Assembly: GCA_963726265.1 (NCBI GenBank)
Contig: CAVSBQ010000002.1
Coordinates: 192,001-256,000, forward strand
Source: Candidatus Aenigmatarchaeota archaeon
Lineage (GTDB): Archaea > Aenigmatarchaeota > Aenigmatarchaeia > QMZP01 > QMZT01
Length of the DNA stretch: 64,000 nucleotides
Direction of reading: 5' to 3'
The notes beneath the pieces are model-generated. The model saw only the letters and a program-made list of their open reading frames with translations. It did not search any database and was not told where the DNA came from. Positions 1,370-50,443 of this stretch are shown one piece after another. How positions within the stretch are numbered: position 1 is the first letter of the stretch; each line of letters opens with the position of its first letter. A program made the translations under genes and the position numbers.

Positions 1370-3382
1370 ATGGCCAAGGCGAAAATGACAAGGGAAGAAA
1401 CGCTGGAAAAGTTCAACAAGTTCATGGACGAGTTCTACACGAAAGAGCTCGCGAAGGCTGCGAATGACGGCAAGCCGCTTGTCATCGACTTCGCCAACCT
1501 GGACAAGTTCAATGCCGACCTTTCCGACATGCTGCTCAACCACCCGAACGCCTTCATGGAGCTTACGGGCGAGGCGCTGGGCCAGATGGACCTCGCCAAC
1601 ACCGTAAAGCTCAAGTTCCAGATGAGCGAACCGTTCAACATACGCGACCTGCGCTCCAGACACATAGGCAAGTTCATGTGCATCGAGGGCATCGTGAGGC
1701 GCTCCAGCGAGATAAGGCCTGAGATAACGGAAACGACCTGGCAGTGCCCGGACTGCGGCGAGATATTCCCCCAGCCGAGGAAGGCGAACTTCATCGCCGA
1801 GCCTTACCAATGCCCGAAATGCAGGAACAAGAACGGGCTAAAACAGATAGACAAGAAGATGATAGATACGCGATGGATAACGATAGACGAGCCCTTCGAG
1901 CTCACGGAAGGCGAGAGGCCGTCGCAACTCAATATTTTCCTCACGGAGGACCTGGTCTCGCCTGAGGGCAGGCGCATGACGGACCCGGGGAACCGCATAA
2001 GGATAAGCGGCGTCCTGCGCGAGATGCCCAAAGTCAAGTCCATGGTGAAACTTGACTTTTATTTTGACGCCAATCACGTCGAGCCGACCGAGATAGGCTG
2101 GAGGCAGATGGAGGTGACGAAGGAGGACGAAGAAAAGATAAAGGAATTCGCAAAAGATCCCATCATTTACGAGAAGCTCGTCGATTCCATCGCACCGTCG
2201 CTTTACGGCATGCGCGAGATAAAGGAATCCATCGTCCTGCAGATGTTCGGTGGGGTTCCTCGCACGCTGAAGGACGGGACTAAGTTCAGGGGTGACATAC
2301 ACCTCCTGCTCATAGGCGACCCGTCATCCGGTAAATCGCAGCTGATGAAGCTCATCCCCCAGATAGTCCCGCGCGGCAAGTATGTTTCCGGTAAAGGCGT
2401 CACAGGCGCCGGTCTTACCGCAACCGTCGTTAAGGACGAGCAGTTCATGGGCGGATGGGTGCTCGAGGCAGGAGCGCTTGTCCTGACCAACGGCGGGCTG
2501 CTCGCGATCGACGAATTTGAGAAGATGTCGCAGGACGACCAGGTCGCCATGCACGAGGCGCTCGAACAGGGAACGATATCGATAGCGAAGGCTTCGATAG
2601 TCGCGACGCTGCCTGCCCAGACTTCGGTGCTCGCGGGCGGCAACCCGAAGTTCTCGAGGTTCGACCCTTACATGCCCATAGCGAAGCAGATAAACATCCC
2701 GGATACCCTGCTCACGCGTTTCGACCTCAAGTTCGCGCTGAGGGACGTGCCTGACGCCGAGATGGACAGGAAGATAGTGGAGCACGTTCTCAAATCGAGG
2801 GAACATGATTTCGAGACGACCAAGCCGCTCATAGATCCCGCCTTCATAAGGAAATACGTGGCCTATGCGAAGAAACACTACACCCCCGTCCTTACCACGG
2901 AGACGGGCAAGACGCTGAGGAAGTTCTACATAAACATGAGGAAGCGCGCGGAAGAGCGCGGCGGCGCAGGCGGGCCAATCCCCATAACGCTTCGCCAGTT
3001 CGAGGCACTCATCCGTCTTTCCGAGGCGTCGGCGCGCATCCAGCTCAGCAACGAAATACGCAAGGAAGACACGCAGCGCGCGATAAGGCTCATGCGCTTC
3101 TCGCTGGAGCAGCTCGGCCTCGACACGAAAACCGGCGAGATCGACATAGACAGGGCGGAAGGCGCGACGACGACGTCGAGCGACAGGTCGAAGATAAGAA
3201 TCGTCTTGGACATAATCAGGGAGCTTTCCGAGAAGTCGAAGGAGGTCCCTGTCGCAGAGATACACAAGCTCGCGCTGAAGGGAGGGCTTGAAAGCGACGA
3301 CGAGGTCGATGACGTTATAGAGAAGCTCAAGCGCGAGGGCCTGCTGTTCGAGCCCAGCCCCAACTACGTGCAGAAGGTTTAA
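1370..3382 (+). CDS. mcm: MCM replicative helicase
   Basis: CPDC/CPKC zinc finger, GDPSSGKSQ Walker A, IDEFEKM Walker B, LLTRFDL arginine finger, ITLRQFEALIRL. Confidence 0.97.
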   Translation: MAKAKMTREETLEKFNKFMDEFYTKELAKAANDGKPLVIDFANLDKFNADLSDMLLNHPNAFMELTGEALGQMDLANTVKLKFQMSEPFNIRDLRSRHIGKFMCIEGIVRRSSEIRPEITETTWQCPDCGEIFPQPRKANFIAEPYQCPKCRNKNGLKQIDKKMIDTRWITIDEPFELTEGERPSQLNIFLTEDLVSPEGRRMTDPGNRIRISGVLREMPKVKSMVKLDFYFDANHVEPTEIGWRQMEVTKEDEEKIKEFAKDPIIYEKLVDSIAPSLYGMREIKESIVLQMFGGVPRTLKDGTKFRGDIHLLLIGDPSSGKSQLMKLIPQIVPRGKYVSGKGVTGAGLTATVVKDEQFMGGWVLEAGALVLTNGGLLAIDEFEKMSQDDQVAMHEALEQGTISIAKASIVATLPAQTSVLAGGNPKFSRFDPYMPIAKQINIPDTLLTRFDLKFALRDVPDAEMDRKIVEHVLKSREHDFETTKPLIDPAFIRKYVAYAKKHYTPVLTTETGKTLRKFYINMRKRAEERGGAGGPIPITLRQFEALIRLSEASARIQLSNEIRKEDTQRAIRLMRFSLEQLGLDTKTGEIDIDRAEGATTTSSDRSKIRIVLDIIRELSEKSKEVPVAEIHKLALKGGLESDDEVDDVIEKLKREGLLFEPSPNYVQKV

Positions 3383-3439
3383 AAATTAGTTTCTTTTAAG
3401 TGGTGAATATAATATAAATGTATTTGCCATAGAATAAGC

Positions 3440-4150
3440 ATGGCAAAGGTGGATAAGATATTCTATCTAACTCCCGGTACTGAAACTTTAGTTCATTATT
3501 TGAGCCAGGGCGTTCTAGAGTGCATGAAATTTGTCCCTGTCAAAATTTTTTATGGAGATTTGAGAGATCCGCTACATCGCATACAGATAGATGACGAAAA
3601 CGCTGTGCTGATATGGGGTGACGGGTATGACCACGGCATAACATATTTTTTCAGGCCCAGCGTCCCTTATCGCAAATCAGTCGACGACGCACACGGAGAT
3701 GCCGTCTTTTTCAGGAAAGGCCATAAGGTGGGCATGACAAATCACAATAATGCGCTCGCGGTTCTTGACCCAAACCTGATTGAACTGGAGGTTCTCGGAG
3801 TAAAGGAGCCGGGCCCAGACCGCATGTCTCCAGAGACGTTCTCAGTTAACGGCAAGGTCATAAGATTTTCTGACAAACTGAAAACCGGCTTCCTGCCACC
3901 GAAGGCGGGGATAGTCCACAAAAGCATAGATTTGGACGTCATAAAGGATTATTCGTGCTGTTATGCGTTTGACCGAGGCGAAAGCTCTTACGAAGATGTC
4001 AGGAGGTCTTTTGAAGAAGTTCTTGCAAACAACAGAGTTGTAAGATTCGATATAGGCGGGCTGGATGTTTACCAAGGAGTCAGGCAAAAAATCATGGATG
4101 GGATTAAAATCTACAGTGATTTGATAGAGCTTTATCTTGACAGCGCATAA
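3440..4150 (+). CDS. Hypothetical protein, arginase/ureohydrolase-like fold
   Basis: GDGYDHGIT, DAHGD and SIDLDV resemble arginase metal-binding motifs; lower GC than MCM. Confidence 0.5.
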   Translation: MAKVDKIFYLTPGTETLVHYLSQGVLECMKFVPVKIFYGDLRDPLHRIQIDDENAVLIWGDGYDHGITYFFRPSVPYRKSVDDAHGDAVFFRKGHKVGMTNHNNALAVLDPNLIELEVLGVKEPGPDRMSPETFSVNGKVIRFSDKLKTGFLPPKAGIVHKSIDLDVIKDYSCCYAFDRGESSYEDVRRSFEEVLANNRVVRFDIGGLDVYQGVRQKIMDGIKIYSDLIELYLDSA

Positions 4151-30016: not shown

Positions 30017-32398
30017 TCAACTGCACTTGGAGTAGCCGCAGCTCAGGCATGTGTAGCAGCCTTCTGCGCAGTAGAGCTTAGCCTTGCAGACAGGGCAGTT
30101 CTCGTCGGATTCATCGAGCTCTTTCTTATCTTCCTCTGCCTTCACCATTTTCATCTTCTTTCTCTTTTCCTCGCCTATGTGTATAACCTGCACGGCCTTG
30201 CTCATGTCGCGGTATATCGTCACGCCTTTGCACTTCAGCTTGTGCGCGAGTATGTAGGCGTTCTCGACGTCCTTTATGCCCGCCTCGTTGCGCATGTTTA
30301 TCGTCTTGCTGACCGCGTTGTCCGTGAACTTCTGGAAGGCTGCCTGCATCTTTATGTGCCATTCGTAGTCGATGTCATGCGCGGTCTTGAACAGCTCCTT
30401 CGCTGACTTGGGGACGCCTTCTATGTCCTCGATGGAGCCGCTCTTCGAAATCTCGTGCATCAGCTCTTCCGTATAGAAGCCCTTGTCCCGCGCGTATTTT
30501 TCGAACATCCTGTTGACCTCGACCAGCTCGTCGCCGCTGAGGACGTTCTTCCTGACGAATGCGACGGCGAATAACGGCTCTATCCCGCTGGAGCAGTCGG
30601 AAATTATGCTTATCGTCCCCGTCGGCGCGATGGTCGTGACGGTCGCGTTTCTCATGTTTTTGTAGTCCTTCTCGTCCCACCTGCTGCCCTTGAAGTTGGG
30701 AAAACTCCCTCGTTCCTTGCCGAGCTCCACGGATTTGTCGCGGCCGGCCTCCGCTATTGACTTCATCACCTTCTCCCCGATCTTTAGCGCGTCCTCGGAA
30801 TCATAGCGTATGCCGAGCTTTATCAGCATGTCGGCGAAGCCCATGACGCCCAGGCCGATTTTCCTGTTGGCGTGCGTCATGAACTCTATCTGCTTTATCG
30901 GGTACGAGTTCGCGTCTATGACGTTGTCGAGGAAATGCACGCAGGACCTCGTAACCTTTTCCAGCTTTTCCCAGTCTATCTCGCTCTTGCCGTCCTTTTC
31001 CTTGACCATCTTGGAAAGGTTTATCGAGCCGAGATTGCAGGACTCGTAGGGCAAAAGTGGCTGTTCGCCGCATGGATTGGTCGCCTCTATCTGGCCTATG
31101 TGCGGGGTCTGGTTGAACTTGTTTATCTCGTCTATGAAGATTATGCCGGGGTCGCCGGTCTTCCAGGCCTGGTAGGTTATCATCTCCCAGACCTGGCGCG
31201 CGAACAGCTTCTTGAATGGCACGCCGGTCCTCGGGTTCAGCAGGTCGTATTCGCTTTCGTTTTCGAGCGCCTTCATGAACTTGTCCGTGATCGCGACGGA
31301 GATGTTGAAGTTCGTCAGCAGCCGGTTCTCGCTGTCCTTCGACGTTATGAAATCGAGCACGTCGGGATGGTCTATCCTCATTATACCCATGTTAGCACCA
31401 CGACGCCTCCCACCCTGTTTTATGACATCGGTCGCCACGTCGAACACACGCATGAAGGAAAGCGGTCCTGATGCGATGCCTTTCGTCGACTTGACCATGT
31501 CACCGTTCGGCCTGAGCTTCGAGAACGAGAATCCCGTCCCCCCTCCGCTCTGATGGATTATCGCGGTATATTTCAGCGAATCGAAAATGCTGTCAAGCGA
31601 GTCGCCTATGGGAAGCACGAAACATGCAGAAAGCTGACCCAGCTGAGCGCCCGCGTTCATGAGCGTCGGCGAGTTGGGCATGAACTCGAAGCTGGTCATC
31701 ATGGCATAGAATTCGTCCTCCCTTGCCTTCACCTCGCCCCACTTGTTCTTCAGTATCTCGAGCAGCTCGCTGAACGTGACCTTCATCTGCTTTCTCAGAT
31801 TCAGCCTCTGATACGCCCTGTGCAGCATTTTGACGTTGTGCATGGTCAGGCCGATTTCCTGCGCCTTTTTGGGCAGGCCGTCCAGCTCGGGCAGGTCTCT
31901 TATCCTCTGCTCCTTGCCCTTGTCGAAAACCAGATCATGATAAAGCATGTCTATCAGCGAGATATGGCGCGCGACGCGCCTGAACAGCTCGCCCGTCGAT
32001 TCGGTGACGTTGCCTTCTTCGTCCTTGAGCAGGTAGCGCGCCTTCAGGACCTTTATCGTGTTGACGGGAAGCTTCAATTCGTCGCGCACGCCGAGCATTT
32101 CCTTCGCCTTTCTCGACTCCTCGCGCTCCTTCCTGTAGATTATGTACGCTTTCGCGGTCGCCGCATGGCCGTTCTCTATCAGGACCTTCTCCACGATGTC
32201 CTGTATCTGCTCGACGGTCGGGATTTCCTTGTCGAACTTCTCCTCGACCAGCTGGACCACTTTCTCGGCCAAGCTTTTAGCGAGCCCGAGATCCTCGCCT
32301 CCGACCGATTTCGCGGCCTTGAAGATGGCGCTGACTATCTTTTCAGTGTTGAAATCGACGACTCTTCCGTCCCTTTTCTTCACCTTGCTGACCGTCAT
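30017..32398 (-). CDS. nrdJ: Adenosylcobalamin-dependent (class II) ribonucleotide reductase with ATP-cone and C-terminal Zn ribbon
   Basis: VKKRDG ATP-cone, PNSPTLMNAG, LSACF, TNPCGEQPL...CNLGSINL, TIAPTGT, C-terminal CPVC/CLSCGYSKC. Confidence 0.95.
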   Translation of the reverse strand: MTVSKVKKRDGRVVDFNTEKIVSAIFKAAKSVGGEDLGLAKSLAEKVVQLVEEKFDKEIPTVEQIQDIVEKVLIENGHAATAKAYIIYRKEREESRKAKEMLGVRDELKLPVNTIKVLKARYLLKDEEGNVTESTGELFRRVARHISLIDMLYHDLVFDKGKEQRIRDLPELDGLPKKAQEIGLTMHNVKMLHRAYQRLNLRKQMKVTFSELLEILKNKWGEVKAREDEFYAMMTSFEFMPNSPTLMNAGAQLGQLSACFVLPIGDSLDSIFDSLKYTAIIHQSGGGTGFSFSKLRPNGDMVKSTKGIASGPLSFMRVFDVATDVIKQGGRRRGANMGIMRIDHPDVLDFITSKDSENRLLTNFNISVAITDKFMKALENESEYDLLNPRTGVPFKKLFARQVWEMITYQAWKTGDPGIIFIDEINKFNQTPHIGQIEATNPCGEQPLLPYESCNLGSINLSKMVKEKDGKSEIDWEKLEKVTRSCVHFLDNVIDANSYPIKQIEFMTHANRKIGLGVMGFADMLIKLGIRYDSEDALKIGEKVMKSIAEAGRDKSVELGKERGSFPNFKGSRWDEKDYKNMRNATVTTIAPTGTISIISDCSSGIEPLFAVAFVRKNVLSGDELVEVNRMFEKYARDKGFYTEELMHEISKSGSIEDIEGVPKSAKELFKTAHDIDYEWHIKMQAAFQKFTDNAVSKTINMRNEAGIKDVENAYILAHKLKCKGVTIYRDMSKAVQVIHIGEEKRKKMKMVKAEEDKKELDESDENCPVCKAKLYCAEGCYTCLSCGYSKCS

Positions 32399-32856
32399 GC
32401 TTTCCCCCCTTTGCCGCTCAGCTTCCTGAGCTCTTCCTGGAAGCTCTCGATGTCCTCGAACTCGCGGTAGACGGAAGCGAAGCGGATGTAGGCGACTTTG
32501 TCGGCCTTCTTCAGCTTTTTCATCACAAGCTCGCCTATCCTCTTGCTCGGTATCTCGATGCTGTCCTCCCCGCGCAACTCGGCTTCGATTTCTTCCACCA
32601 TCTTTTCTATGGCTTCGTTCGTGATGGGCCTCTTCTCGCAGGAACGGATGATGCCCTTCTTCACCTTGTCCCTGTCGAATCGCTCTCTCCGCCCGTCTTT
32701 CTTCACGACGATAAGCTCCGCCGATTCCACCCTCTCGTATGTGGTGAAGCGCTTGCCGCATTTCAGGCATTCCCTTCGTCGCCACACTGACTTCTCGTCA
32801 GAGCTTCGCTTGTCTATGACCTTCATCTCCTCGCTCGAGCAGTAGGGGCAGCGCAT
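32395..32856 (-). CDS. nrdR: Transcriptional repressor NrdR
   Basis: MRCPYC, RRRECLKCGKRFTTYERVE, ATP-cone, DKVAYIRFASVYREF. Confidence 0.96.
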   Translation of the reverse strand: MRCPYCSSEEMKVIDKRSSDEKSVWRRRECLKCGKRFTTYERVESAELIVVKKDGRRERFDRDKVKKGIIRSCEKRPITNEAIEKMVEEIEAELRGEDSIEIPSKRIGELVMKKLKKADKVAYIRFASVYREFEDIESFQEELRKLSGKGGKA

Positions 32857-33097: not shown

Positions 33098-34130
33098 ATG
33101 TCCAAAGTTTACTTCTTCCCCGCGGCGCGCAAAGAGGATATGGAGAAGGCGCTGGAAAGGCTCTACGAAAAGATCTCCGGCAGTTTCGACGTCCGAGGAA
33201 AGCGAATCGCGATAAAAATGCATTTCGGCGAGAAGGACAACACCACCCATCTCGATCCCGCCTTCGCCAGAAAGATATGCGAGCTCGTGCGAAGCCGCGG
33301 CGGGACGCCAGAGCTTGTCGAATGCAACACGCTTTATCGCGGCGAACGCCTGCACACGAACGAACACCTCGCGCTCGCTAAGGCGCACGGCTTCGACTTC
33401 GCGCCCGTCGTGATATGCGACGACAAAAACAGGGAATGGCAAATCCCCGTCCGCGGCAAACATTTCAGGAAAGTCAGGGTCGGCGCGCGTCTTAAGGACT
33501 ACAAAATGATGATAGCCGTGACGCATTGCAAGGGTCATGTTGCGGCGGGGTATGGCGGCGCGCTCAAGAACGTGGGCATGGGTTTGGGAAGCCGCGGCGG
33601 GAAACTGGAAATGCACGCCAAGGTAAAGCCCATATTCAAACAAGACAAGTGCAAGGCGTGCGGAGCGTGCGTCAAGCGCATGCCCTGCGGACGCGATTGC
33701 CATGGAGAAATACGCGGTCATGGACTCTGCCAAATGCATAGGCTGCGCGACCTGCGTCGCAGTCTGCCCGTACGGCGCGGTCGAAATTCCGTGGTTCAAC
33801 ACGACCTCGCAGGAAATCCAGGAGCGCATCGTCGAATACGCCCGCGGCGTCACCAGCAAAATCAAAACCATCTATTTCAACTTCCTGCTGAACATCACGC
33901 CCCACTGCGACTGCGTCGCGGACTCTGGCAGGCCGCTGCTCAAGGACATAGGCATTCTTGCATCGGAAGACGTCGTCGCGCTGGAGCAGGCCTCCCTGGA
34001 CATGATAAAGGGGAGAGCAGGCCGCGACGTCTTCATGGAAAGCCACAAGATCGACGTCTCCGTCCAGCCCGCTTACGCGGAGGCGATGGGCATGGGCGAG
34101 AGGCGGTATGAAATAGTGAAGCTTGACTAG
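33098..34130 (+). CDS. DUF362 Fe-S protein with 2x4Fe-4S ferredoxin insert (frameshift near 33680)
   Basis: IKMHFGE, CNTLY.G.R, HCKGH...GYGGALKN.GMG, CKACGAC, CIGCATC...CP, ITPHCDC. Confidence 0.85.
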
Positions 34131-34184
34131 CTCGCCTATGCCGGCACAGCGGCCATTTTTAAAATTAATTATTACTCTTTAATT

Positions 34185-35366
34185 ATGAAACCACGACTAT
34201 TGATTGTTTATAAGCCCTCAATAATCACATACCCATTACTGGAAGAAAAACTTTTAGAGCTGCTCAGTCCTGTAGGAAATTTTATTGCTAGACGAAAATG
34301 GTATTCAATTCCTGAAGAACGGGTTAAGGAACTTTATACTGAACATATGAATAAGCCGTTTTTTGCACCTTTGTGTAATCTACTTTTAGGAAGACCCATA
34401 ACTACTCACGTATTTGAATCTAAGGGAGATGAAGATGAATCTTGGGTAAATTACGTCAGAACCGAGCTGATAGGGCACACAAATCCCCAGCTTTCAAGAA
34501 AAGGTACGTTTAGATATTATGTACATAAATTGACAGGAGAATCTTTGGAAAAAGCGGGCTCGGAAAGGAGATCTATTGACAACGGTGTTCATTGTTCTGA
34601 TTCCATTAAAAGCGGGCAAAGAGAATGCGCTATTTTTTATTGGGATTATATTCTTGATAACTCCAAAATATTATACTCGAATATCTCATTAATGGATGGG
34701 TCTCTTGCAAAAGATTTTGCAAAAAATGGGAGGGGTGTTTTCTTCGAAGAAAGGTTAGAATATTGTTTAAGAAAAAATAAACTTCTAAAAAAAGATGAAT
34801 TATTTGTTAAGTATGAGGAGTTACCTGTACCTGATAAAAATGGTGGATTTAGTTATGGTTGGAAACAGAGAGGTGCTGAAACTTTTACAGCAGGAGGTAG
34901 AGTAAGAAGTAGAAAGGGAGAAGACATTAATATTATAGATTTTGTTGCTAAAGCTTGTATCAATCTTCTTCCCGAAAAAAGAATCACTGAATGGCTTAAA
35001 AGAGGAGAAATTTTATCCACAGAGGGTGTTAAAACACCTAAATTATATTATCGTGAAAAAGGAGCTTATTATGAACAATATCTTAAATTTTCAGCCGAGG
35101 AAGTTCTAAGTAAAGCCGAGCCGATAAAAAGAGAAAAGCTCATAAGACAAATTGCAAGAATTGCTGGAGTTATAGATCGCAAATTTCTGTACCCTCAAGA
35201 TTTTATTGGTGACTTAAGAAGTGATGGTGAGGACATATTTTTTACTGATTTTGGTGAAGATTTAGGAGGTGCTGGTGAAGGTAAACACACAATTGGAAAA
35301 GATACGTTATTTAGCTATTTCAGAGGCAAGGATTTAGATTTATCATTAAAAGAATATGAGAATTAA
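34185..35366 (+). CDS. Nucleoside-diphosphate-kinase-like domain fused to a protein-kinase/APH-like domain
   Basis: KP, Y.EH..KPFF, IGHTNP...KGTFR, NGVHCSDS...RE (NDK); C-terminal AK, TPKLY, FTDFG. Confidence 0.75.
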   Translation: MKPRLLIVYKPSIITYPLLEEKLLELLSPVGNFIARRKWYSIPEERVKELYTEHMNKPFFAPLCNLLLGRPITTHVFESKGDEDESWVNYVRTELIGHTNPQLSRKGTFRYYVHKLTGESLEKAGSERRSIDNGVHCSDSIKSGQRECAIFYWDYILDNSKILYSNISLMDGSLAKDFAKNGRGVFFEERLEYCLRKNKLLKKDELFVKYEELPVPDKNGGFSYGWKQRGAETFTAGGRVRSRKGEDINIIDFVAKACINLLPEKRITEWLKRGEILSTEGVKTPKLYYREKGAYYEQYLKFSAEEVLSKAEPIKREKLIRQIARIAGVIDRKFLYPQDFIGDLRSDGEDIFFTDFGEDLGGAGEGKHTIGKDTLFSYFRGKDLDLSLKEYEN

Positions 35367-35415
35367 TTACTTAATAGATAGTAATATTTATAAAACTTCA
35401 ATTTCAACTAACAAT

Positions 35416-36423
35416 ATGAAACTAAGATCGGCCATTATAGGATTAGGTCATCAAGCAATAGAAGATCATATACCTGGTTTGAAAGATTCTCAACTTGCCA
35501 AATTGATCGCTATTTGCGATGTTGATGAGAACAAATTAAAGGAATGGCAAGATAAATTGGGTGTAAAAGGCTACAAATATCATCAAGATTTATTTAATGC
35601 TGAAAAATTGGATTTTGTTATTGCGGCTTTGCCGCATGACGAATACAGGAGTGTTATAGAAGAGGCCAGCAAAAGGCATTTGCACATTTTGAAAGAAAAG
35701 CCATTTGCCAGAAACTTGGATGAAGCTTTTTATTTCAAAAAACTTTGTGATGAGAATGACATACATTTAACAACAACCTTACAACGAAGATTCAATCCTA
35801 TATACAACACATTTTTCCAATTGAAGGATCAAATCGGAAAACCTTTCTTTGTGGATGCGAAATATACACTTTTTGTTGAAGCGCCGCATGAAGGATGGAG
35901 AGGTAAAAGAGATGAAGCGGGTGGCGGTGCCATAATAGATATGGGATACCACATGATTGACATGATTGTCTGGTATTTTGGCCTTCCAAATAATATACAT
36001 GCAGAATTCTCATCAAAGGCAAAACCCGAAGAAACTTATGATGCAGAAGATACAGCAGTTGTTTTACTTTCTTATGATGATGGTTTACACGGTTCATTGA
36101 CATTGTCAAGATATTATCCTCCAAAAACGGAAAGGATAAAGGTCATTGGAGATAACGGCATAATTGAAGTTGAAAGAGGCAGTATAAAGAGATTTAAAAG
36201 TGATGGTGAATTGGCAGAATCTTTGGTGAGAGAACATTCATGGCCAGTAGCAGCAACAAATCAAATTGATTATTTTTGCAGAGTAATAAAGGGAGAAAGA
36301 GAAAATATTGGAACTCCAGAGTATCATTTACAGCATGTAAGTTTTGTTGATGCTTGTTATAAATCAAAAAAAGAAGGCAAATATATAAATCCGAGGGAGT
36401 TGCTAGCTCGACATGAAAAGTAA
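35416..36423 (+). CDS. Gfo/Idh/MocA family NAD-dependent oxidoreductase
   Basis: IIGLGHQA, KEKPFA, QRRFNP, GGGAIIDMGYHMID; TTTATAAA box at 35387-35394. Confidence 0.92.
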   Translation: MKLRSAIIGLGHQAIEDHIPGLKDSQLAKLIAICDVDENKLKEWQDKLGVKGYKYHQDLFNAEKLDFVIAALPHDEYRSVIEEASKRHLHILKEKPFARNLDEAFYFKKLCDENDIHLTTTLQRRFNPIYNTFFQLKDQIGKPFFVDAKYTLFVEAPHEGWRGKRDEAGGGAIIDMGYHMIDMIVWYFGLPNNIHAEFSSKAKPEETYDAEDTAVVLLSYDDGLHGSLTLSRYYPPKTERIKVIGDNGIIEVERGSIKRFKSDGELAESLVREHSWPVAATNQIDYFCRVIKGERENIGTPEYHLQHVSFVDACYKSKKEGKYINPRELLARHEK

Positions 36424-37663
36424 GTTAGCTATACATGGCGGTGAAAGGGTTGTAAATATTGATGGACCACATTATGTATGGCCTGTGATTGGTGATAAAA
36501 CAAGAAATGCCGTTTTAAATCAGCTTTATGAGAGTATATCAATTTACAATAGATCCGGAATTATAGAAAGGTTAGAAAACAGACTTTCAGAATACTATGG
36601 GAAAAAACATGCTTTATTAACTAATTCTGGTACTTCTGCAATCCACTCCATGTTCGCAGGGAGTGGTTTGAACGAAGGAGATGAAGTTATTGTCCCAGCT
36701 TACACGTTCTACGCAAGCGCAACACCTTTATTTTTCACAGGTTCTATTCCAGTTCTGGCAGATTGCAGAAAAGATGGAAATATAGACCCTAGATATGTCG
36801 AAAGCAAAATAAGCAAAAACACAAAGGGAATCGCCGTTACACATATGTGGGGCTTACCATGTGATATGGAATCGATAGAGAAGTTAGCTAGAAAATTCAA
36901 TCTTATGCTTTTTGAAGATGCTTCTCATGCTCACGGAGCCAAATACAGAGGGAGGAAAATAGGGACATTCGGGAATGCTTCTGCATTTAGTTTGCAAGCC
37001 CAAAAGATTTTGACTGGTGGTGAAGGCGGGATTTTGTTGACAGATAATGATGAAATTTTTTATAGAGCATTGCTTCTAGGCCATTATAATAAAAGATGTA
37101 AACAGGAAATACCTAAAGATCATCCTCTTTATAAATTCGCAATAACAGGCATGGGATTGAAATTTAGAATACATCCCATCGCAGCAGCCATTGCCGATGA
37201 GCAATTAGATAATCTTGATGATATTTTACAGAAAAAAAGAGAGACTGCGGAGAAAATGATTAAAGTATTTGGTAATTTTCCTGGAATCGGTGTGCCTCAA
37301 GTACCTGATGGTGTGGAACCAAGCTGGTATGCTTTTCTCATGCAATACAAACCTGAAGAATTAAAAGGACTTTCTGTTGAAAAATTTTATGAAGCTTTGA
37401 AAGCTGAAGGTTGCGATGAATTAGACAGACCTGGTTCTACTTGCCCTCTTAATTATCATCCTTTGTTCCAAAATCCTGAAATTTTATTTCCAAAATACAA
37501 AGGAAAGGTAAATTATAGAAAGGGGGATTTCCCAGTTGCGGAGGAATTTCATGAAAATTCTTTAAAGTTACCAGTTTGGCATGATCCTAGAGATGAAAAG
37601 GTTTTAGATTTATATATCAAAGCATTTGAGAAAGTGATAGAAAGGAGTGAGGAGCTTTTGTAA
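36413..37663 (+). CDS. DegT/DnrJ/EryC1/StrS family PLP aminotransferase
   Basis: KLAIHGG, NSGTSA, GDEVIVPAYTF, EDASHAHGA, FSLQAQKILTGGEGG. Confidence 0.93.
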   Translation: MKSKLAIHGGERVVNIDGPHYVWPVIGDKTRNAVLNQLYESISIYNRSGIIERLENRLSEYYGKKHALLTNSGTSAIHSMFAGSGLNEGDEVIVPAYTFYASATPLFFTGSIPVLADCRKDGNIDPRYVESKISKNTKGIAVTHMWGLPCDMESIEKLARKFNLMLFEDASHAHGAKYRGRKIGTFGNASAFSLQAQKILTGGEGGILLTDNDEIFYRALLLGHYNKRCKQEIPKDHPLYKFAITGMGLKFRIHPIAAAIADEQLDNLDDILQKKRETAEKMIKVFGNFPGIGVPQVPDGVEPSWYAFLMQYKPEELKGLSVEKFYEALKAEGCDELDRPGSTCPLNYHPLFQNPEILFPKYKGKVNYRKGDFPVAEEFHENSLKLPVWHDPRDEKVLDLYIKAFEKVIERSEELL

Positions 37664-38113
37664 ATGAAACGGACTTTCTATAATACTCTGGTTAGTGAAG
37701 CCCAAAAAATAGGAATTAAAAGATACGTAGTTGGTGCCGTAATAAGAAAAAATTCTGAAATTTTGCTATTAGAAAGACCAAAAAATGAATTTATGGGAGG
37801 AATTTACGAATTGCCCAGCGGTAAGGTAGAGATAGGAGAGTCCCTTGATGCGGCTCTACGTAGGGAAGTTGAGGAAGAAACAAGTCTCCAAATTCATAAA
37901 ATACAAAAGTATTTAGGTCATTTCGATTATGATTCAAAAAAAGGTGACAGAACACGACAATTTAACTTTTCTGTCACAGTCAAAAAACCAATGGAAATCA
38001 GATTGCAAGAGCATGTTGATTATGCTTGGGTTAATAACGATGCATTACACGATCATCCTGTTACTGATAACGTAAAACAAATTTTAAGTTCATTCTGGGA
38101 GACAAATGGATAG
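37664..38113 (+). CDS. Nudix hydrolase
   Basis: ELPSGKVEIGESLDAALRREVEEETSL Nudix box. Confidence 0.92.
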   Translation: MKRTFYNTLVSEAQKIGIKRYVVGAVIRKNSEILLLERPKNEFMGGIYELPSGKVEIGESLDAALRREVEEETSLQIHKIQKYLGHFDYDSKKGDRTRQFNFSVTVKKPMEIRLQEHVDYAWVNNDALHDHPVTDNVKQILSSFWETNG

Positions 38114-38210
38114 AAAAGATCATTTGTTAACCTTTGAAGAACAAGATGCCCTCGGTAAGTCTGAATTATTAGATAGGGTCCATATTGTATTTGGTAATAA
38201 AAAACTATAG
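38106..38210 (+). pseudogene. Truncated thymidylate-kinase-like P-loop remnant (34 aa)
   Basis: MDRKDHLLTFEEQDALGKSELL resembles the ITFEGxDGxGKST N-terminus; start overlaps the Nudix stop. Confidence 0.4.
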
Positions 38211-38285
38211 AGGGGGGCTACTGCAGAAATTAGCGATATGCTTACTAAAATATTCTTTTTATTATAGTAATTAAAAGTGGATATT

Positions 38286-38894
38286 ATGAATTTAGATAAG
38301 AAAATCGTCGATGAAATAATAGAATACGTTAAAAATATTTACTCCAAATTAGAGTTAACACATGACATAAATCATATAGAAAGAGTTGCGAATTTAGCTA
38401 TTTTTTTAGCCGAAAGGGAAGGTGCTAATGTTGATATTGTGAAAGCTTCGGCCTGGTTGCATGACATAGGATACTCAGGTTTGACTAAAAAGGAAATGGT
38501 AGAAAAAGATCATGCAAATTTATCGATAAAAACAGCACAAGGTATTTTGATAAATAGAGGATTGGATAAAGATATTGTAGAATCAATTTGTAAGTGTATT
38601 CTTTTGCATGATAGTTCAAGAATTAAAATCGACAGTTCCATAGAAGCTAAATGTCTTCACGACGCTGATAAGCTTGATTGTGTTGGTGTGCGAGGAATGC
38701 TGAGACTTTTTGCATGGAATCTGACTATCGAACCAATGAATTGTAGTATTTCTGAATATATGAAACATTTGAAGAAAGGTGTATTAACAAAGGAGAAAGT
38801 TTTGATTACTAAAACCGCAAAAGAGCTCGCCAATAAATGGAATAAAAAGTTGTTAGAATTCTTTGATGCATATCAAGATGAAATAAATTTTTAA
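38286..38894 (+). CDS. HD-domain metal-dependent phosphohydrolase
   Basis: HDINHIERV, WLHDIG, DHA, H, DADKLD. Confidence 0.9.
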   Translation: MNLDKKIVDEIIEYVKNIYSKLELTHDINHIERVANLAIFLAEREGANVDIVKASAWLHDIGYSGLTKKEMVEKDHANLSIKTAQGILINRGLDKDIVESICKCILLHDSSRIKIDSSIEAKCLHDADKLDCVGVRGMLRLFAWNLTIEPMNCSISEYMKHLKKGVLTKEKVLITKTAKELANKWNKKLLEFFDAYQDEINF

Positions 38895-38986
38895 AGAAAG
38901 GATAAAATATAACGGCGTGATATATTTATAAACCCCTCCGCCAATAATTCAATCCGCTTAAACATACCATGATTACAGGTGATTAT

Positions 38987-39323
38987 GTGAAACCGTTATG
39001 CGAATACATGATAAATGAGATGCTTCCAGGGTTTCGAGCGCTCGTCGCGAAGAAGCTGATGGAAGACCATGGCCTTTCCCAGACCGAGGTCGCGGAGCTG
39101 CTCGACACGACGCAGCCGGCGATTTCGCAATACAGGCGCCAGCTGCGCGGGAAGAAGACTTCTGTTTTTATGAAGAACCACGAGCTGCTCGACTTCCTCG
39201 ACAGCGATGGCGCAAAGGATTGCGACGGGCAAGATAAGGCCGGACCAGACCGGCCTCGAGTTCTGCAGGGTGTGCAGGTTCATGCGCGACAGGGACATCG
39301 TTTCGGGCGTTTCCATGTGCTGA
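38987..39323 (+). CDS. Archaeal HTH transcriptional regulator (frameshift near 39205)
   Basis: KPLCE...LP.FRALVAKKL...GLSQ.EVA.LL.TTQPAISQY...RG; CRVC in the shifted frame. Confidence 0.8.
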
Positions 39324-45865: not shown

Positions 45866-46081
45866 GTGAAATATATTTGTTTATTTAAATATATAAATAT
45901 CAGATGGGCGATTAGAGAGATAAATTAGGATGGCTGTTCGGAGGGGCTTTTGGGCCTTCCCTCCTGGGGCTTTCAACCCGAGGTTAAATCCCCAACGGTT
46001 CTTAGTCCTGGATCTTCTTTTTCTCTTTTACAGGGTACACGTAAAAATCAATTTATAAATATGTACCCCCTAATTATACAC

Positions 46082-47008
46082 ATGGCATATCATGAAGAGA
46101 AGAAAATCGGTGGGAAAAATTTTCATTACATCGTAAAGGTTGTAAGAATCGGTGGGAAAATAAAGAAATTGCGAGTTTATGCGGGTAAGGGTGAAAAAAG
46201 CAAAAAAGAAATCAGCGAACTTATCAGCAAATTCTCACCACAACTTGAAGATAAAACCAAAAAACTCCTTTCAAAAAAGGATCCGTTATATGGCATTTTG
46301 ACCGAAGAGGAAAATGAACTGCTTGAAAAAATAAAGTCAGATAACCAGAAAAAGATTAAAAAAATGGACAACCTTGCGTGGAAAAATTATTACGAATGGT
46401 TCATAGTCCAGTTCACCTACAATACGAATGCGATAGAAGGCTCGACGCTCAGTCAAGAAGACACAAACCTCATACTTTTCGAGAATACGGTACCAAGGGG
46501 CAAGTCAACGAGAGAGATAAACGAAGCTCAGAATCACAAGGAAGCATTCGATTTTATCATCGAATATGATGGAAACATGACAAAGCGATTCGTGCTGAAC
46601 ATACATAAAAAACTCATGCACAATATCCTTTGGAAGGCTGCCGGAAGATTCAGGGATGTCGATGTCTACATACGCGGTGTTGACATGATTCCGCCGCCGC
46701 ATAATATTGTTGAACAGGAGTTCAAAAAACTGATGGCATGGTATTCTAAAAGCCGACGAAAATACAACCCGATTGTCGTTGCCGCGTATTTTCACTCGGC
46801 TTTCGAGTCCATTCACCCGTTCAGGGACGGAAACGGCAGATCCGGCAGGCTCATTATCAATTTCATGCTCAGAAAGGAAGGCTTCCCTATGATAGACATC
46901 AAGAACAAAGACAAGGAAAGATACTACAAGTCTCTCTATGAGGCCCAGAAAAATTACAATCTAAGACCGCTTGTCGAGATGATTGTCGATTACCTAAAGG
47001 AAACCTAA
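46082..47008 (+). CDS. Fic family protein (class II, autoinhibited)
   Basis: HPFRDGNGRSGR catalytic motif; TNAIEG inhibitory motif. Confidence 0.93.
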   Translation: MAYHEEKKIGGKNFHYIVKVVRIGGKIKKLRVYAGKGEKSKKEISELISKFSPQLEDKTKKLLSKKDPLYGILTEEENELLEKIKSDNQKKIKKMDNLAWKNYYEWFIVQFTYNTNAIEGSTLSQEDTNLILFENTVPRGKSTREINEAQNHKEAFDFIIEYDGNMTKRFVLNIHKKLMHNILWKAAGRFRDVDVYIRGVDMIPPPHNIVEQEFKKLMAWYSKSRRKYNPIVVAAYFHSAFESIHPFRDGNGRSGRLIINFMLRKEGFPMIDIKNKDKERYYKSLYEAQKNYNLRPLVEMIVDYLKET

Positions 47009-47884: not shown

Positions 47885-48619
47885 ATGTCGAAAAAGACTC
47901 GTTTGCTAGCGCTGCTCATGCGTTCCGGCGAATTCGAACGTACGGCGGAAGCGGAAGAAGCCGTGCGTGAAGGAAGAATCACAATCGACGGCAAGCCGGC
48001 AACGAATCCGCAGCACTCGGTCAAGGCCAGGGCAGTCATCAGCATCGACGGCCGCGAGCTTAGACCGGCGGAATTCGTTTACGCCATCCTCAACAAGCAG
48101 GCCGATATGGTCTGCCAGAAAACTGACAAGGAAAAATCGATTTACGACGTCATCGCCTCTATCGCGGAAATCGACGCTAAGACGCGGAAGCCTGTTCTGC
48201 GTAGGCAGGCTGGACAAGGACACGGAAGGCCTGCTGATTGTGACGAACGACGGACGGCTGGAAAAACTACTGACAAGGAAGGAGAACCGTGTTATCAAGA
48301 CTTATGCCGTCACGACGGTCGGCCCTGTCACAGAAGACGACATCGCAGCCCTCAAGAAGGGGGTGCAGATAACCGACGACGACACGAACAGGGCGTTCCT
48401 GGTCAAGGCCGCGGCCATCCGCAGGCTCGGCGGAAAACAGATAGAGATGGACATAGACGAGGGTAGGAAGCGCCAAATCAAGAAGATGTTCGAGGCGCTC
48501 GGTAACAGCGTGACGTTTCGCTTAAGCGCGTGGCAATCGGCCCGCTGAGGCTGGAGGACCTCGACTTCAAAGGGAAGCCGTATCTGATAGTCAAAAGGAG
48601 CGACCTGAAAATCAGGTAG
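47885..48619 (+). CDS. RsuA/RluB family pseudouridine synthase with S4 domain (frameshifts near 48190 and 48520)
   Basis: S4 domain, LNK, VGRLDKDTEGLLIVTNDG, EGRKRQIKKMFE. Confidence 0.85.
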
Positions 48620-48659
48620 CGCTTCGTGTGCCTTATTGGCTCTTTATGCTTCAGAAAAT

Positions 48660-48860
48660 TTAGGCTTTTCTCCTATCGTAGCATTCCCGGCAGTAGTATT
48701 CCCAGGCCTGCGAAGGATACAGCTGGACCGCGTTGGTCGAGTCCTTGCCGCACACCGTGCACAGGTTTTGCATGAGATGTCTGAGAATAAATTTGCCTGA
48801 CGTCTTGTCCATTCCAGTAGTCAACATTATTCTCCAAACGTTACTCGAACGATAACCCAA
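48660..48860 (-). CDS. Small CxxC-CxxC protein
   Basis: CTVCGK...CREC; start uncertain. Confidence 0.45.
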   Translation of the reverse strand: MGYRSSNVWRIMLTTGMDKTSGKFILRHLMQNLCTVCGKDSTNAVQLYPSQAWEYYCRECYDRRKA

Positions 48861-48997
48861 TGATGCCTTTGATATGCCTGTGTGTGCTTGTGTATACTAT
48901 ATATTGGAGCCGCCGACATATAAGGCCATATAAGGGCCTGAATTGGGTTTTTGGCGTTTAAACATAGCCTTTTAAGGCAAAATTCGAATTTTAAATC

Positions 48998-49198
48998 ATG
49001 AATATTAAAGTTGTTCTGTTTATTTTAGTCATCATTACCCTTTTATCCACTCTTTTGATTTCTGGTTGCACTAACATGATTGAAACATGCAAACAAAAAT
49101 ATGATAGGTGCGTTTCTGACTGCAAACAAAGAGGTGCTTTTCAACAACTATTGTGTCAGGCTGATTGTGAAGGCCAATATGCTAAATGCCACGACTAA
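48998..49198 (+). CDS. Small Cys-rich lipoprotein
   Basis: Lipobox LISGC; CX6CX3C...CX3CX6C. Confidence 0.65.
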   Translation: MNIKVVLFILVIITLLSTLLISGCTNMIETCKQKYDRCVSDCKQRGAFQQLLCQADCEGQYAKCHD

Positions 49199-49220
49199 AG
49201 ATTGAAAGAAGGTATGATGA

Positions 49221-49901
49221 ATGGTAAAACATCAAAAACTCCAATTTTATAAGAAATTGGCAATTGTTTTCGCCATCTCTAACATCGTTCTCGGCGTATG
49301 GCTTGGTGTTTTTTATTTAAATTCGAGTAGTTGGATTGAACACTATAAAAAATTGTATAATTGGAGTGAGTCAAATTGCACGAAATTCATTGAAGATTAT
49401 GAAAATTTATTAGATTCAAGCAGGTCGAATTTTAGTTATTACTATCATTCACTTGAATCAAATTGCACTTATTACCTAAATGCATGTTATGAAAGAGAAG
49501 AAGAATATGGAAATATGATAGACTTATTGCTGGGCAAATCGCATGTAAATTCAACTACAGCAAAGGCAAACAATCAGACAAACTATTCATATTTTGGAGG
49601 GCGCATTATTGCAGCCGATGGGCAATTTCTTGGGGTTATAAACAGCAATAGTTATGACCCAGACAGCATTGCAAATTCGTATGGAACATATGGTAATGAA
49701 TATAGTGCTAAATCGATATGGAACAAATATGGGACATATGGTAATCTTTACAGTACTTATAGCGTGTATAATTCATATGCGAATTCACCGCCTTCCGTTT
49801 ATTTGAATGGAGTATTTTACGCGTATTTAACCAAAAATACATTCAAATCTCCACGATTAGATCCTGACGTAGTAGCAATAGTTATTAGAACAAACACTTA
49901 A
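49221..49901 (+). CDS. Membrane-anchored protein with YGTYG-repeat domain
   Basis: TM helix; FLG.I.SN.YD.DSI.N.YGTYG..YS..SIWN.YGTYG; AT-rich. Confidence 0.7.
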   Translation: MVKHQKLQFYKKLAIVFAISNIVLGVWLGVFYLNSSSWIEHYKKLYNWSESNCTKFIEDYENLLDSSRSNFSYYYHSLESNCTYYLNACYEREEEYGNMIDLLLGKSHVNSTTAKANNQTNYSYFGGRIIAADGQFLGVINSNSYDPDSIANSYGTYGNEYSAKSIWNKYGTYGNLYSTYSVYNSYANSPPSVYLNGVFYAYLTKNTFKSPRLDPDVVAIVIRTNT

Positions 49902-49933
49902 CACAATATTTTTCTTCACGAATTTGCTGCCAG

Positions 49934-50443
49934 CTACTTCGACTTGATGTCGACGACCTTTATCTTAAAGATTAATGTTTTTCCTGCGAGCGGGTGGTTG
50001 AGGTCGAGGGTGACTTCTGTGGCTGCGACTGCCGTGATTCTTGCGGGAATCTGCTGGCCGTTCGGGAGGGTGGCGATGAGCATCATGCCCGCCTTGGGCT
50101 CCGGCTCCTTCGGGAGATGGATGCGCGGCAGCTTCTGTATGAGGGCGGGATTCGGGTCGCCATACGCCTCCGCCGGCTTGAGCTTTATTGTCTTCTCCTC
50201 GCCCTTCCTCATGCCAAGGACGGCGTTGTCGAAGCCCTTTATGATTTTGCCCGAGCCGGCCTCGAACTCGAGCGGCTGGTTGTTGTGGTTGGCGGAGCAG
50301 TCGAATACGGTTCCGTCTTCCAGCGAGCCCTCGTATTCGACCTTGACTATGTCGCCTTTCTTGACAACCTGAGCATCAGACTTGCCTGGTTTCCCGGCTT
50401 TTTCGCCTTTCTTTGAATTCTTTGAATCCTTTGGACCTGCCAT
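49934..50443 (-). CDS. slyD: FKBP-type peptidyl-prolyl isomerase (SlyD-like)
   Basis: VKVEYEGSLEDGTVFD, PAEAYG, DLNHPLAGKTL. Confidence 0.92.
   Translation of the reverse strand: MAGPKDSKNSKKGEKAGKPGKSDAQVVKKGDIVKVEYEGSLEDGTVFDCSANHNNQPLEFEAGSGKIIKGFDNAVLGMRKGEEKTIKLKPAEAYGDPNPALIQKLPRIHLPKEPEPKAGMMLIATLPNGQQIPARITAVAATEVTLDLNHPLAGKTLIFKIKVVDIKSK

Follow-up and report, generated by a model that had tools for sequence, protein, structure and literature searches.

What would be made by an operon that joins an oxidoreductase and an aminotransferase to nucleotide kinases and nucleotide hydrolases, and what use would a small archaeon have for it? This question is raised by a block of genes at positions 34185–38894 of a 64,000-nucleotide stretch of DNA from a Candidatus Aenigmatarchaeota archaeon (GenBank assembly GCA_963726265.1, contig CAVSBQ010000002.1, positions 192,001 to 256,000 of the forward strand), hereafter called the window. 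A first-pass annotation, made from the letters of the window, had likened this block to the beginning of puromycin biosynthesis and proposed that it makes a 3′-amino nucleotide or nucleoside analogue for antiviral defence or antagonism. Our analysis leads us to favour, with modest conviction, the view that its core of three genes (dehydrogenase, aminotransferase and Nudix hydrolase, hereafter the trio) is of the same enzyme kind as AdgB–D and Pur10–Pur4–Pur7, and that the operon would make a 3′-amino nucleotide analogue.

Kinship of the core with aminonucleoside enzymes

All frames of the block lie on the + strand and are closely joined, two pairs overlapping by 11 bases and a third junction having a gap of 0 bases. 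The first gene (34185–35366) encodes a fusion of a nucleoside diphosphate kinase (NDK) with a Bud32/RIO-like mini-kinase, recognised through the Pfam NDK model, an AlphaFold 2 (AF2) model and Foldseek. It is followed by a Pur10/AdgB-like NAD-dependent dehydrogenase of the Gfo/Idh/MocA family (35356–36423; assigned by Pfam, homologues and a tree), the start of which may be the Met codon at 35416, as homologues align from about residue 20. Next come a Pur4/AdgC-like aminotransferase of the DegT family, dependent on pyridoxal phosphate (36413–37663; Pfam, 253.6 bits, and the clade described below), and a Pur7/AdgD-like Nudix (MutT-like) nucleoside triphosphate (NTP) pyrophosphohydrolase (37664–38113; Pfam, 62.8 bits). 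The block ends with a dTMP-kinase-like remnant (38107–38211), which consists of the N-terminal P-loop region with a degraded motif and was assigned by its match to the kinase of a related locus (L007), and with an HD phosphohydrolase of the YpgQ/YedJ/PenF type (38277–38894, or from an ATG at 38286; Pfam HD, 45.4 bits). Every member of the gene list given by the first-pass annotation was therefore found. Its statement that glycosyltransferases, acyltransferases and sugar nucleotidyltransferases are lacking was borne out as well, as none of these domains was matched in the island by domain-model scans and the frames fill it. No HAD phosphatase was found in the island by the Pfam scan.

The best solved relatives of the Nudix enzyme are of the MutT type, and those of the HD enzyme are 5dqv (E 1e-13) and 3gw7 (YedJ). 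The entry 5DQW, which has the same sequence as 5dqv, is YpgQ, a nucleotide pyrophosphohydrolase, and the YpgQ-like PenF is the arabinoside-monophosphate 5′-nucleotidase of the pentostatin/vidarabine nucleoside-antibiotic cluster, as described in PMC11592144.

Two described systems serve as references for the trio. In Photorhabdus, a low-G+C cluster whose genes adgB–E are homologous to pur10, pur4, pur7 and pur3 makes 3′-amino-3′-deoxyguanosine, which the Escherichia coli enzymes Gsk, Gmk and Ndk convert to a GTP mimic that stops RNA chains (PMC9239236). The puromycin-type series of Streptomyces alboniger, whose cluster also encodes Pur3, proceeds from an NTP through its 3′-keto and 3′-amino forms to the monophosphate, by the action of Pur10, Pur4 and Pur7, and homologous sets belong to A201A and cystocin (PMC11641026).

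We compared the enzymes of the window with a predicted adg-type cluster found on pBMSBPS2 (L084), a 6.3-kb plasmid of Candidatus Pantoea carbekii, whose genes other than repA encode a dehydrogenase, an aminotransferase, a Nudix protein and a protein of the inositol-monophosphatase family. These genes follow the order of adgB–E and the four-gene cluster is the sole cargo of the plasmid; the same four-gene order is carried by plasmid pPstS2 of the Plautia stali symbiont (L129). The plasmid dehydrogenase begins with MKISIIGC, and the adgB forward primer given in PMC9239236 translates to MKLVIIGC. The two plasmids suggest, as an observation in its own right, that the stink-bug gut symbionts that carry them make a 3′-amino nucleoside.

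The aminotransferase of the window matches the adg-type enzyme with 42% identity and 331 bits, while solved DegT enzymes reach at best 161.7 bits, WbpE 87.8 bits and NtdA 84.4 bits. The closest full-length solved aminotransferase, 8gyh/8gyj, is Fic25 of ficellomycin synthesis and was uninformative on the substrate. The Nudix enzyme is 45% identical to its adg-type counterpart over 66 residues. In a careful tree of 34 aminotransferases, whose ultrafast bootstrap was not fully settled, one clade (ultrafast bootstrap 97; SH-like approximate likelihood ratio test, SH-aLRT, 90) united all 20 trio-type rows, the adg-type enzyme, the enzyme of the window and one from a Streptomyces cluster of dehydrogenase, aminotransferase and thymidine phosphorylase. 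Outside this clade fell ArnB and WecE of E. coli, the other DegT enzyme of the host, a Streptomyces paralogue and seven other Streptomyces enzymes. When the adg-type dehydrogenase was searched against two whole Streptomyces genomes, the trio dehydrogenase was the sole match at E ≤ 1e-5; in one of these genomes, which has at least 12 members of the dehydrogenase family, the trio enzyme scored 458 bits and the next one 79. The trio dehydrogenases also formed a clade in a quick tree (SH-aLRT 98).

By homology the aminotransferase is thus placed in the Pur4/AdgC lineage, and 3′-amino-3′-deoxy nucleotide chemistry is supported for the trio. What the first-pass annotation had described as a Pur10/Pur4/Pur7-like core stands on the score of the aminotransferase, on its clade, on the reciprocal search with the dehydrogenase and on partner genes that recur as nucleotide kinases and NTP hydrolases, in a form qualified by the route of the comparison, which goes through the adg-type cluster.

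The trio family and its partners

At E ≤ 1e-10, 592 homologues of the dehydrogenase were found; the top 120 share 51–77% identity with it. Its relatives occupy 207 loci (one genome per species), and the counts out of 80 given in this text refer to the best 80 of these. They belong to 8 DPANN archaea, 69 Actinomycetota, 1 Terriglobus, 1 member of the Bdellovibrionales and 1 unclassified bacterium. By tblastn, an aminotransferase gene lies downstream of the dehydrogenase gene in 79 of the 80 loci and a Nudix gene is present in 77, two of the three misses being at contig ends; the complete trio is syntenic in 77. One DPANN relative (L004) has the same order as the island, that is dehydrogenase, aminotransferase, Nudix, dTMP-kinase-like and HD genes; the HD protein of the window is 50% identical to the product of the gene at the same place in that locus, the HD gene being present in 1/80 related loci.

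Partner genes were identified by clustering 1362 called frames and scanning the domains of 18 cluster representatives, which stand for every partner cluster found in at least 5 loci. Recurrent partners are an APH-type phosphotransferase (21/80), a dTMP-kinase-like protein (12/80, in both DPANN archaea and actinomycetes), a HATPase_c_2 protein (22/80), a divergent XRE-TPR regulator (21/80) or an NsdA-family regulator (28/80; 218.9 bits), a 5-formyltetrahydrofolate cyclo-ligase (12/80) and a second Nudix protein (5/80). Genes for TrwC relaxases (9/80) and integrases (4/80) recur too, and in Nocardia such genes adjoin the trio. Six of the eight DPANN relatives have inside the operon a gene for an amidinotransferase-like protein of 365–374 amino acids (L001, at 2685–3797, L002, L003, L005, L006 and L067), with an Atlas score of 0.96, no Pfam or NCBIfam match and some nearest Atlas clusters that are mostly viral. 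The presence of this gene raises the possibility that those archaea convert the amine to a guanidino compound. The same partner of about 370 residues was considered as a relative of the NDK fusion and ruled out, as the two are not related.

These neighbourhoods bear on a pathway to amino sugars for a surface glycan, the alternative suggested by the enzyme superfamilies themselves. The pairs WbpB/WbpE (WlbA/WlbC), which act on UDP-GlcNAcA, and NtdC/NtdA, which make kanosamine, belong to the same two superfamilies as the dehydrogenase and aminotransferase and follow the same logic of oxidation and subsequent amination. The substrate would then be an NDP-sugar, as for WbpB/WbpE, or a sugar phosphate, as for NtdC/NtdA, and the Nudix enzyme would recycle the nucleotide handle. 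In agreement with this, the NCBIfam models on which the dehydrogenase scores highest are those of inositol 2-dehydrogenase (93.9 bits) and of the archaeal UDP-GlcNAc 3-dehydrogenase (86.9 bits); among solved structures it is closest to 3q2i and 3q2k, which we take to be WlbA, and the aminotransferase matches the models of PseC, LegC and WecE. The NCBIfam scores are, however, far below the cut-offs (355, 450 and 423 bits), as with the 86.9 bits for UDP-GlcNAc 3-dehydrogenase against 450. Because the adg-type enzymes give the same weak list, these matches do not discriminate between the two chemistries and do not argue for sugars. Similarity to the Wbp and Ntd enzymes is far lower (82–88 bits), with 87.8 bits for WbpE and 84.4 bits for NtdA set against 331 bits for the adg-type aminotransferase. 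Their usual partners are missing, nucleotide kinases and Nudix proteins being found instead, and the host has a separate standard DegT gene elsewhere in its genome (401.8 bits). No glycosyltransferase, acetyltransferase, sugar nucleotidyltransferase or epimerase was seen among the 18 cluster representatives or 46 scanned neighbours of the related loci. The association with glycosylation loci that the first-pass annotation had named as a sign of sugar chemistry was thus not seen; enzymes of glycan synthesis do not recur near the homologues, and nucleotide kinases and NTP hydrolases recur instead. We consider the amino-sugar pathway very unlikely.

Of 401 sampled Streptomyces genomes, 22 gave an aminotransferase hit at E ≤ 1e-70; the hits of 15 genomes are of the trio type (44–55% identity). 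The other seven are 37–41% identical; six of them lack the dehydrogenase, one of these six (L094) having a Nudix gene nearby. The seventh is that of L095 (6663–14534), a locus that combines Nudix, dehydrogenase and aminotransferase genes with a methyltransferase and a carbamoyltransferase, has an integrase nearby and is probably an aminonucleoside antibiotic cluster.

The trio family is mobile: here it is part of a foreign island, in Nocardia it has relaxases and integrases as neighbours, and in Streptomyces it occurs on plasmids. On plasmid pSGZL of Streptomyces sp. 769 (L081, 5421–13519), the trio lies beside an extra gene for alanine–tRNA ligase (alaS); a second Nudix gene is encoded on the opposite strand, and remnants of type I-E cas genes occur about 9 kb away. 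On pKVP1 of Streptomyces viridifaciens (L083, 10001–16564), the trio is decaying: its dehydrogenase gene is unannotated, its aminotransferase gene is cut to 756 bases, and after this copy come four Nudix genes and an ABC transporter. Phage records gave dehydrogenase matches at 21–28% identity only, and no viral contig with a relative of the dehydrogenase was found in IMG/VR.

Kinases and the predicted pathway

The kinases are what separates the trio family from antibiotic clusters. In the fusion protein, residues 1–155 form a divergent NDK (Pfam, 53.9 bits with a cut-off of 27), whose score of 55.9 on the NCBIfam equivalog model falls far short of the cut-off of 155. It keeps the catalytic His in the motif NGVHCSDS, aligned with solved NDKs, and has an extra loop before this residue. 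Standard NDK handles nucleotides without a 3′-OH poorly, and the divergence of this NDK would fit such a substrate.

Residues 160–393 of the fusion (234 amino acids) belong to no Pfam family. This mini-kinase domain has 450 relatives among 1.84 billion representative sequences; 13 free-standing relatives that we scanned (209–250 residues) gave no Pfam match, and in five others the domain is fused to NDK (four) or to adenylate kinase (one). The AF2 model, from an alignment of 70 sequences, has a predicted local distance difference test score (pLDDT) of 93.4, and Foldseek places it closest to PRPK/Bud32, Rio1 and TkArkI, an archaeal RNA kinase, with probability 1.00 and TM scores of only 0.40–0.52. 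Residues K97, D184 and D196 (domain numbering), invariant or nearly so in the 70 sequences, sit at the places of the kinase beta-3 Lys, the catalytic loop and the metal-binding Asp of DFG. The C-terminal domain is accordingly modelled as a Bud32/RIO-like kinase fold, and the first-pass annotation was right to call the protein a fusion of NDK with a kinase. The fusion as a whole is rare, with four homologues among 5.8 billion proteins. On one metagenome contig (L116, 1470–3575), a 42%-identical NDK/mini-kinase fusion is followed by Nudix and cytidylyltransferase-like genes, with no dehydrogenase or aminotransferase.

The dTMP-kinase-like frame, which had been noticed as a remnant in the first pass, is indeed one: of its first 25 residues, 14 are identical to those at the N-terminal end of the L007 kinase (E 3e-5 in a small search), and the position of this 34-codon frame, behind the Nudix gene, is the one that the kinase gene has in L004 and L007. 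It is a deletion remnant. Intact dTMP-kinase-like proteins of the relatives score 42.5–77.4 bits on TIGR00041, for a cut-off of 83.25. A standard NDK (150.8 bits) and a standard dTMP kinase (148.9 bits) are encoded elsewhere in the genome of the host, so that the kinases of the island are extra ones, dedicated to the module.

On this homology, a pathway can be proposed in which the dehydrogenase would oxidise the 3′-OH of a ribonucleoside triphosphate to a ketone, the aminotransferase would convert the 3′-ketone to a 3′-amine and the Nudix enzyme would cleave the toxic 3′-amino-NTP to the monophosphate. The HD enzyme would either repeat the Nudix cut, like YpgQ, or take off the last phosphate, like PenF, thereby replacing Pur3/AdgE; this unrelated hydrolase occupies in the island the last place, held by Pur3/AdgE elsewhere. 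The extra kinases, namely the NDK/Bud32-like fusion and, before its decay, the dTMP-kinase-like enzyme, would most likely feed or re-phosphorylate the analogue. The kinase types present across the family (protein-kinase-like or APH, dTMP-kinase-like and NDK) would parallel the arming of the Photorhabdus prodrug by Gsk, Gmk and Ndk, and from their recurrence it would seem that the phosphorylated form is retained or regenerated in this family, instead of a nucleoside being exported. The product is probably a chain-terminating nucleotide analogue, judging from the enzymes that would make it.

The island thus shares with the adg clusters (adgA–E of Photorhabdus luminescens, PMC9239236, and pBMSBPS2/pPstS2) the dehydrogenase–DegT–Nudix order, low G+C content and an easily delimited cluster, with aminotransferases that are 42% identical and fall in the same supported clade. 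It differs from them in lacking the phosphatase of the inositol-monophosphatase family and the major facilitator superfamily (MFS) exporter, in adding the NDK/Bud32-like fusion, the decayed dTMP-kinase-like gene and the HD hydrolase, and in having an archaeal host. With the puromycin cluster (and those of A201A and cystocin; PMC11641026) it has in common the same three enzyme families and the same logical series, but it has no Pur6, Pur5 or DmpM for tailoring, no PAC or Pur8 for resistance and no Pur3.

Several points weigh against the production of a 3′-amino nucleotide analogue by a core of this kind. The trio family is without any member of known enzyme activity. The adg-type label of the plasmid cluster was given on gene content, gene order and a short N-terminal primer match, its product being a predicted one, and the relation of the trio to Pur10, Pur4 and Pur7 was drawn through this cluster. 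Between the dehydrogenase and its adg-type counterpart identity is only 26% (102 bits), although the invariant motifs of the family are shared. In the quick tree the adg-type dehydrogenase, together with those of L095 and L082, neighbours the trio clade and stands apart from six paralogues, with an SH-aLRT of 89 that, for the adg-type enzyme, rests on long branches. The aminotransferase of L095 fell outside the clade that holds the adg-type enzyme. Searches by tblastn with the adg-type phosphatase found no Pur3-type phosphatase in the window or in any of the 80 loci, and domain-model scans of the island found no transporter, exporter or acetyltransferase. Were the dehydrogenase to start from an NTP, there would be no strict need for the kinases. 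The NDK fusion occurs in 0/80 trio loci and 13 metagenome relatives of it have no adjoining trio, so that it may be a local add-on, and the dTMP-kinase-like gene has decayed in the island.

The island, its host and possible roles of the product

The operon is carried by an AT-rich, strain-variable island (34115–38987, without strand), delimited by its G+C content and by strain contigs. This is the lowest-G+C stretch of its size (4.9 kb) in the window, with a G+C content of 0.346 against 0.524 in the remainder; the row counts by which the first-pass annotation had drawn attention to it are exact (20 of 60 G+C in the row at 34201 and 38 of 60 at 34021). At third codon positions the G+C content (GC3) is 0.23–0.27 in the five genes of the island, against 0.60 and 0.64 in the flanking DUF362 and HTH genes. 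The host is a small symbiotic-type archaeon, whose assembly comprises 4 contigs (1.13 Mb) and is estimated to be 88% complete. For the small subunit (SSU) rRNA gene of the contig that carries the island, the archaeal model gave 1381 bits and the bacterial model 1070 bits.

Contigs of run X4 are 95–99% alike to both flanks of the island, and the likeness ends at 34114 and 38988, with unlike sequence beyond. Run X1, possibly from the source sample, covered 28 of 30 bins of the stretch, and one of its contigs spans the right border; runs X2 and X3 covered small parts of the stretch only. Because of these matches at the borders, we regard the island as a strain-variable insertion and, as far as the contigs show, as no assembly chimera. 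No convincing tRNA gene, integrase or direct or inverted repeat was found at the borders, and a scan for bacterial-type promoters and terminators gave no more sites than shuffled sequences did. The closest relatives of the window are low-G+C DPANN contigs, at 72–77% identity (L001–L003 have a G+C content of 0.29–0.33), and the operon was probably acquired recently from a low-G+C DPANN archaeon.

A foreign operon may also be inert cargo, transferred in, unused by the host and beginning to decay. The reduction of the dTMP-kinase-like gene to a frame of 34 codons, the wholly foreign codon composition (the GC3 of 0.23–0.27) and the related strain that has no island sequence at the site are all in keeping with this, but five frames of 149–416 codons remain intact in DNA of 35% G+C with their catalytic motifs kept, and the frames are still tightly joined by 11-base overlaps and a 0-base gap. 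We regard inert cargo as a most unlikely explanation of the operon.

The surroundings of the island hold other features. A gene 1.3 kb upstream (30017–32785, − strand) encodes a B12-dependent ribonucleotide reductase of class II that has an ATP cone; the nearness of the module to genes of nucleotide metabolism, here and in L005, may be chance. A second low-G+C islet lies 7 kb from the island, at about 45.9–47.0 kb (1-kb windows below 0.40 G+C), and its gene (45950–47008, + strand) encodes a Fic/DOC-family protein of 352 amino acids (75.3 bits) that is likely foreign. A third low-G+C stretch (48473–50202) contains a frame for 226 amino acids (49221–49901) without a Pfam match and has an FKBP gene at its edge.

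A 3′-amino nucleotide analogue would serve some conflict, be it with viruses, with the host cell or with competitors. Prokaryotic viperins, which make chain-terminating ddhNTPs, pair with nucleotide kinases, and in viperin systems there is a possible analogy for the island, in that a nucleotide-modifying enzyme and nucleotide kinases would together provide a 3′-blocked NTP. The operon would then act against viruses inside the cell, by flooding it with a 3′-amino-NTP chain terminator upon infection, its kinases making the triphosphate and the Nudix and HD enzymes acting as safety valves. Kinase partners recur across loci, the family is mobile and patchy (as in the 15 of 401 Streptomyces genomes), and the divergent NsdA-family or XRE regulator and the HATPase_c_2 protein of actinomycete loci suggest induced expression. 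Some neighbours are also of defence type, namely AbiEi (L007), AbiEii (L024), a PDC-M05A-like nucleotidyltransferase (L004) and mad1/mad2, as well as the cas genes on pSGZL.

The island itself, however, has no radical-SAM viperin and no defence-island context, and PADLOC (2.0) gave no match for the dehydrogenase, the aminotransferase or the NDK fusion, matching only the Nudix protein to the single-gene candidate PDC-S07 (75.6 bits) and the HD protein weakly to Cas3 HD models. The enrichment in defence islands that had been suggested for survey proved weak: in the nearest 120 of 150 non-core frames of at least 180 residues, one for each cluster of 431, 10 matched PADLOC at 1e-10 and about 6 were of defence type (AbiEi, AbiEii, PDC-M05A, mad1, mad2 and a UvrD/GajB-like helicase), counts for which there was no control set. 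In DPANN archaea the neighbours belong mostly to housekeeping and nucleotide metabolism, such as dCTP deaminase and a ThyX-like protein in L005 and the ribonucleotide reductase here, and the island shows no evident sensor or trigger. The antiviral role put forward in the first pass is therefore one that we now regard as unlikely.

The product may instead be released as a 3′-amino nucleoside, a prodrug against the host archaeon or competitors, for which the HD enzyme would perform the last dephosphorylation. This would agree with the nearest characterised systems, adg and pur, which make exported nucleosides, with the YpgQ/PenF type of the HD enzyme, PenF being a 5′-nucleotidase for a sugar-modified nucleotide, and with the order of dehydrogenase, aminotransferase, Nudix and phosphohydrolase, which mirrors adgB–E. 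Set against this are the lack of a transporter or resistance gene in the island (an MFS-like frame, the nearest one, lies 4 kb off in DNA of native G+C content and scores a weak 36 bits) and the rarity of a final phosphatase in the related loci (HD gene in 1/80, inositol monophosphatase in 0/80). The producer's own kinases would, moreover, re-activate the prodrug. Release, too, seems unlikely to us.

A more elaborate proposal, which we consider decidedly unlikely, is that of a self-contained DPANN weapon that is made, armed and disarmed by the same operon, with a 3′-amino-NTP as its product, a kinase cascade of its own and two pyrophosphohydrolases as safety valves. The Bud32-like nucleoside or nucleotide kinase, the dTMP-kinase-like enzyme and the divergent NDK with its extra loop would then handle 3′-modified nucleotides. 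If so, a chain-terminator system of immunity (or of attack on the host) that does not depend on viperin would be common to DPANN archaea and actinomycetes.

We found no paper on the trio module in archaea or as a defence system, in a search that left subscription journals mostly outside. As far as searched, the operon is the first kinase-coupled, phosphatase-less variant of the aminonucleoside core to be noted in an archaeal chromosome. To our knowledge, natural 3′-amino nucleosides are few (the puromycin family and 3′-amino-3′-deoxyguanosine), all of them from antibiotic clusters. The trio core, by comparison, is present in at least 207 species genomes, which range from DPANN archaea to Nocardia and Streptomyces, with nucleotide kinases in place of the phosphatase and exporter. 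If its product were a retained 3′-amino-NTP, the family would represent a second natural route to chain-terminating nucleotides besides viperins. Kinases that accept 3′-modified nucleotides are a known bottleneck for nucleoside drugs, and the family would then be a source of such enzymes. For the host, the operon would be a rare small-molecule weapon in a DPANN genome of 1.1 Mb.

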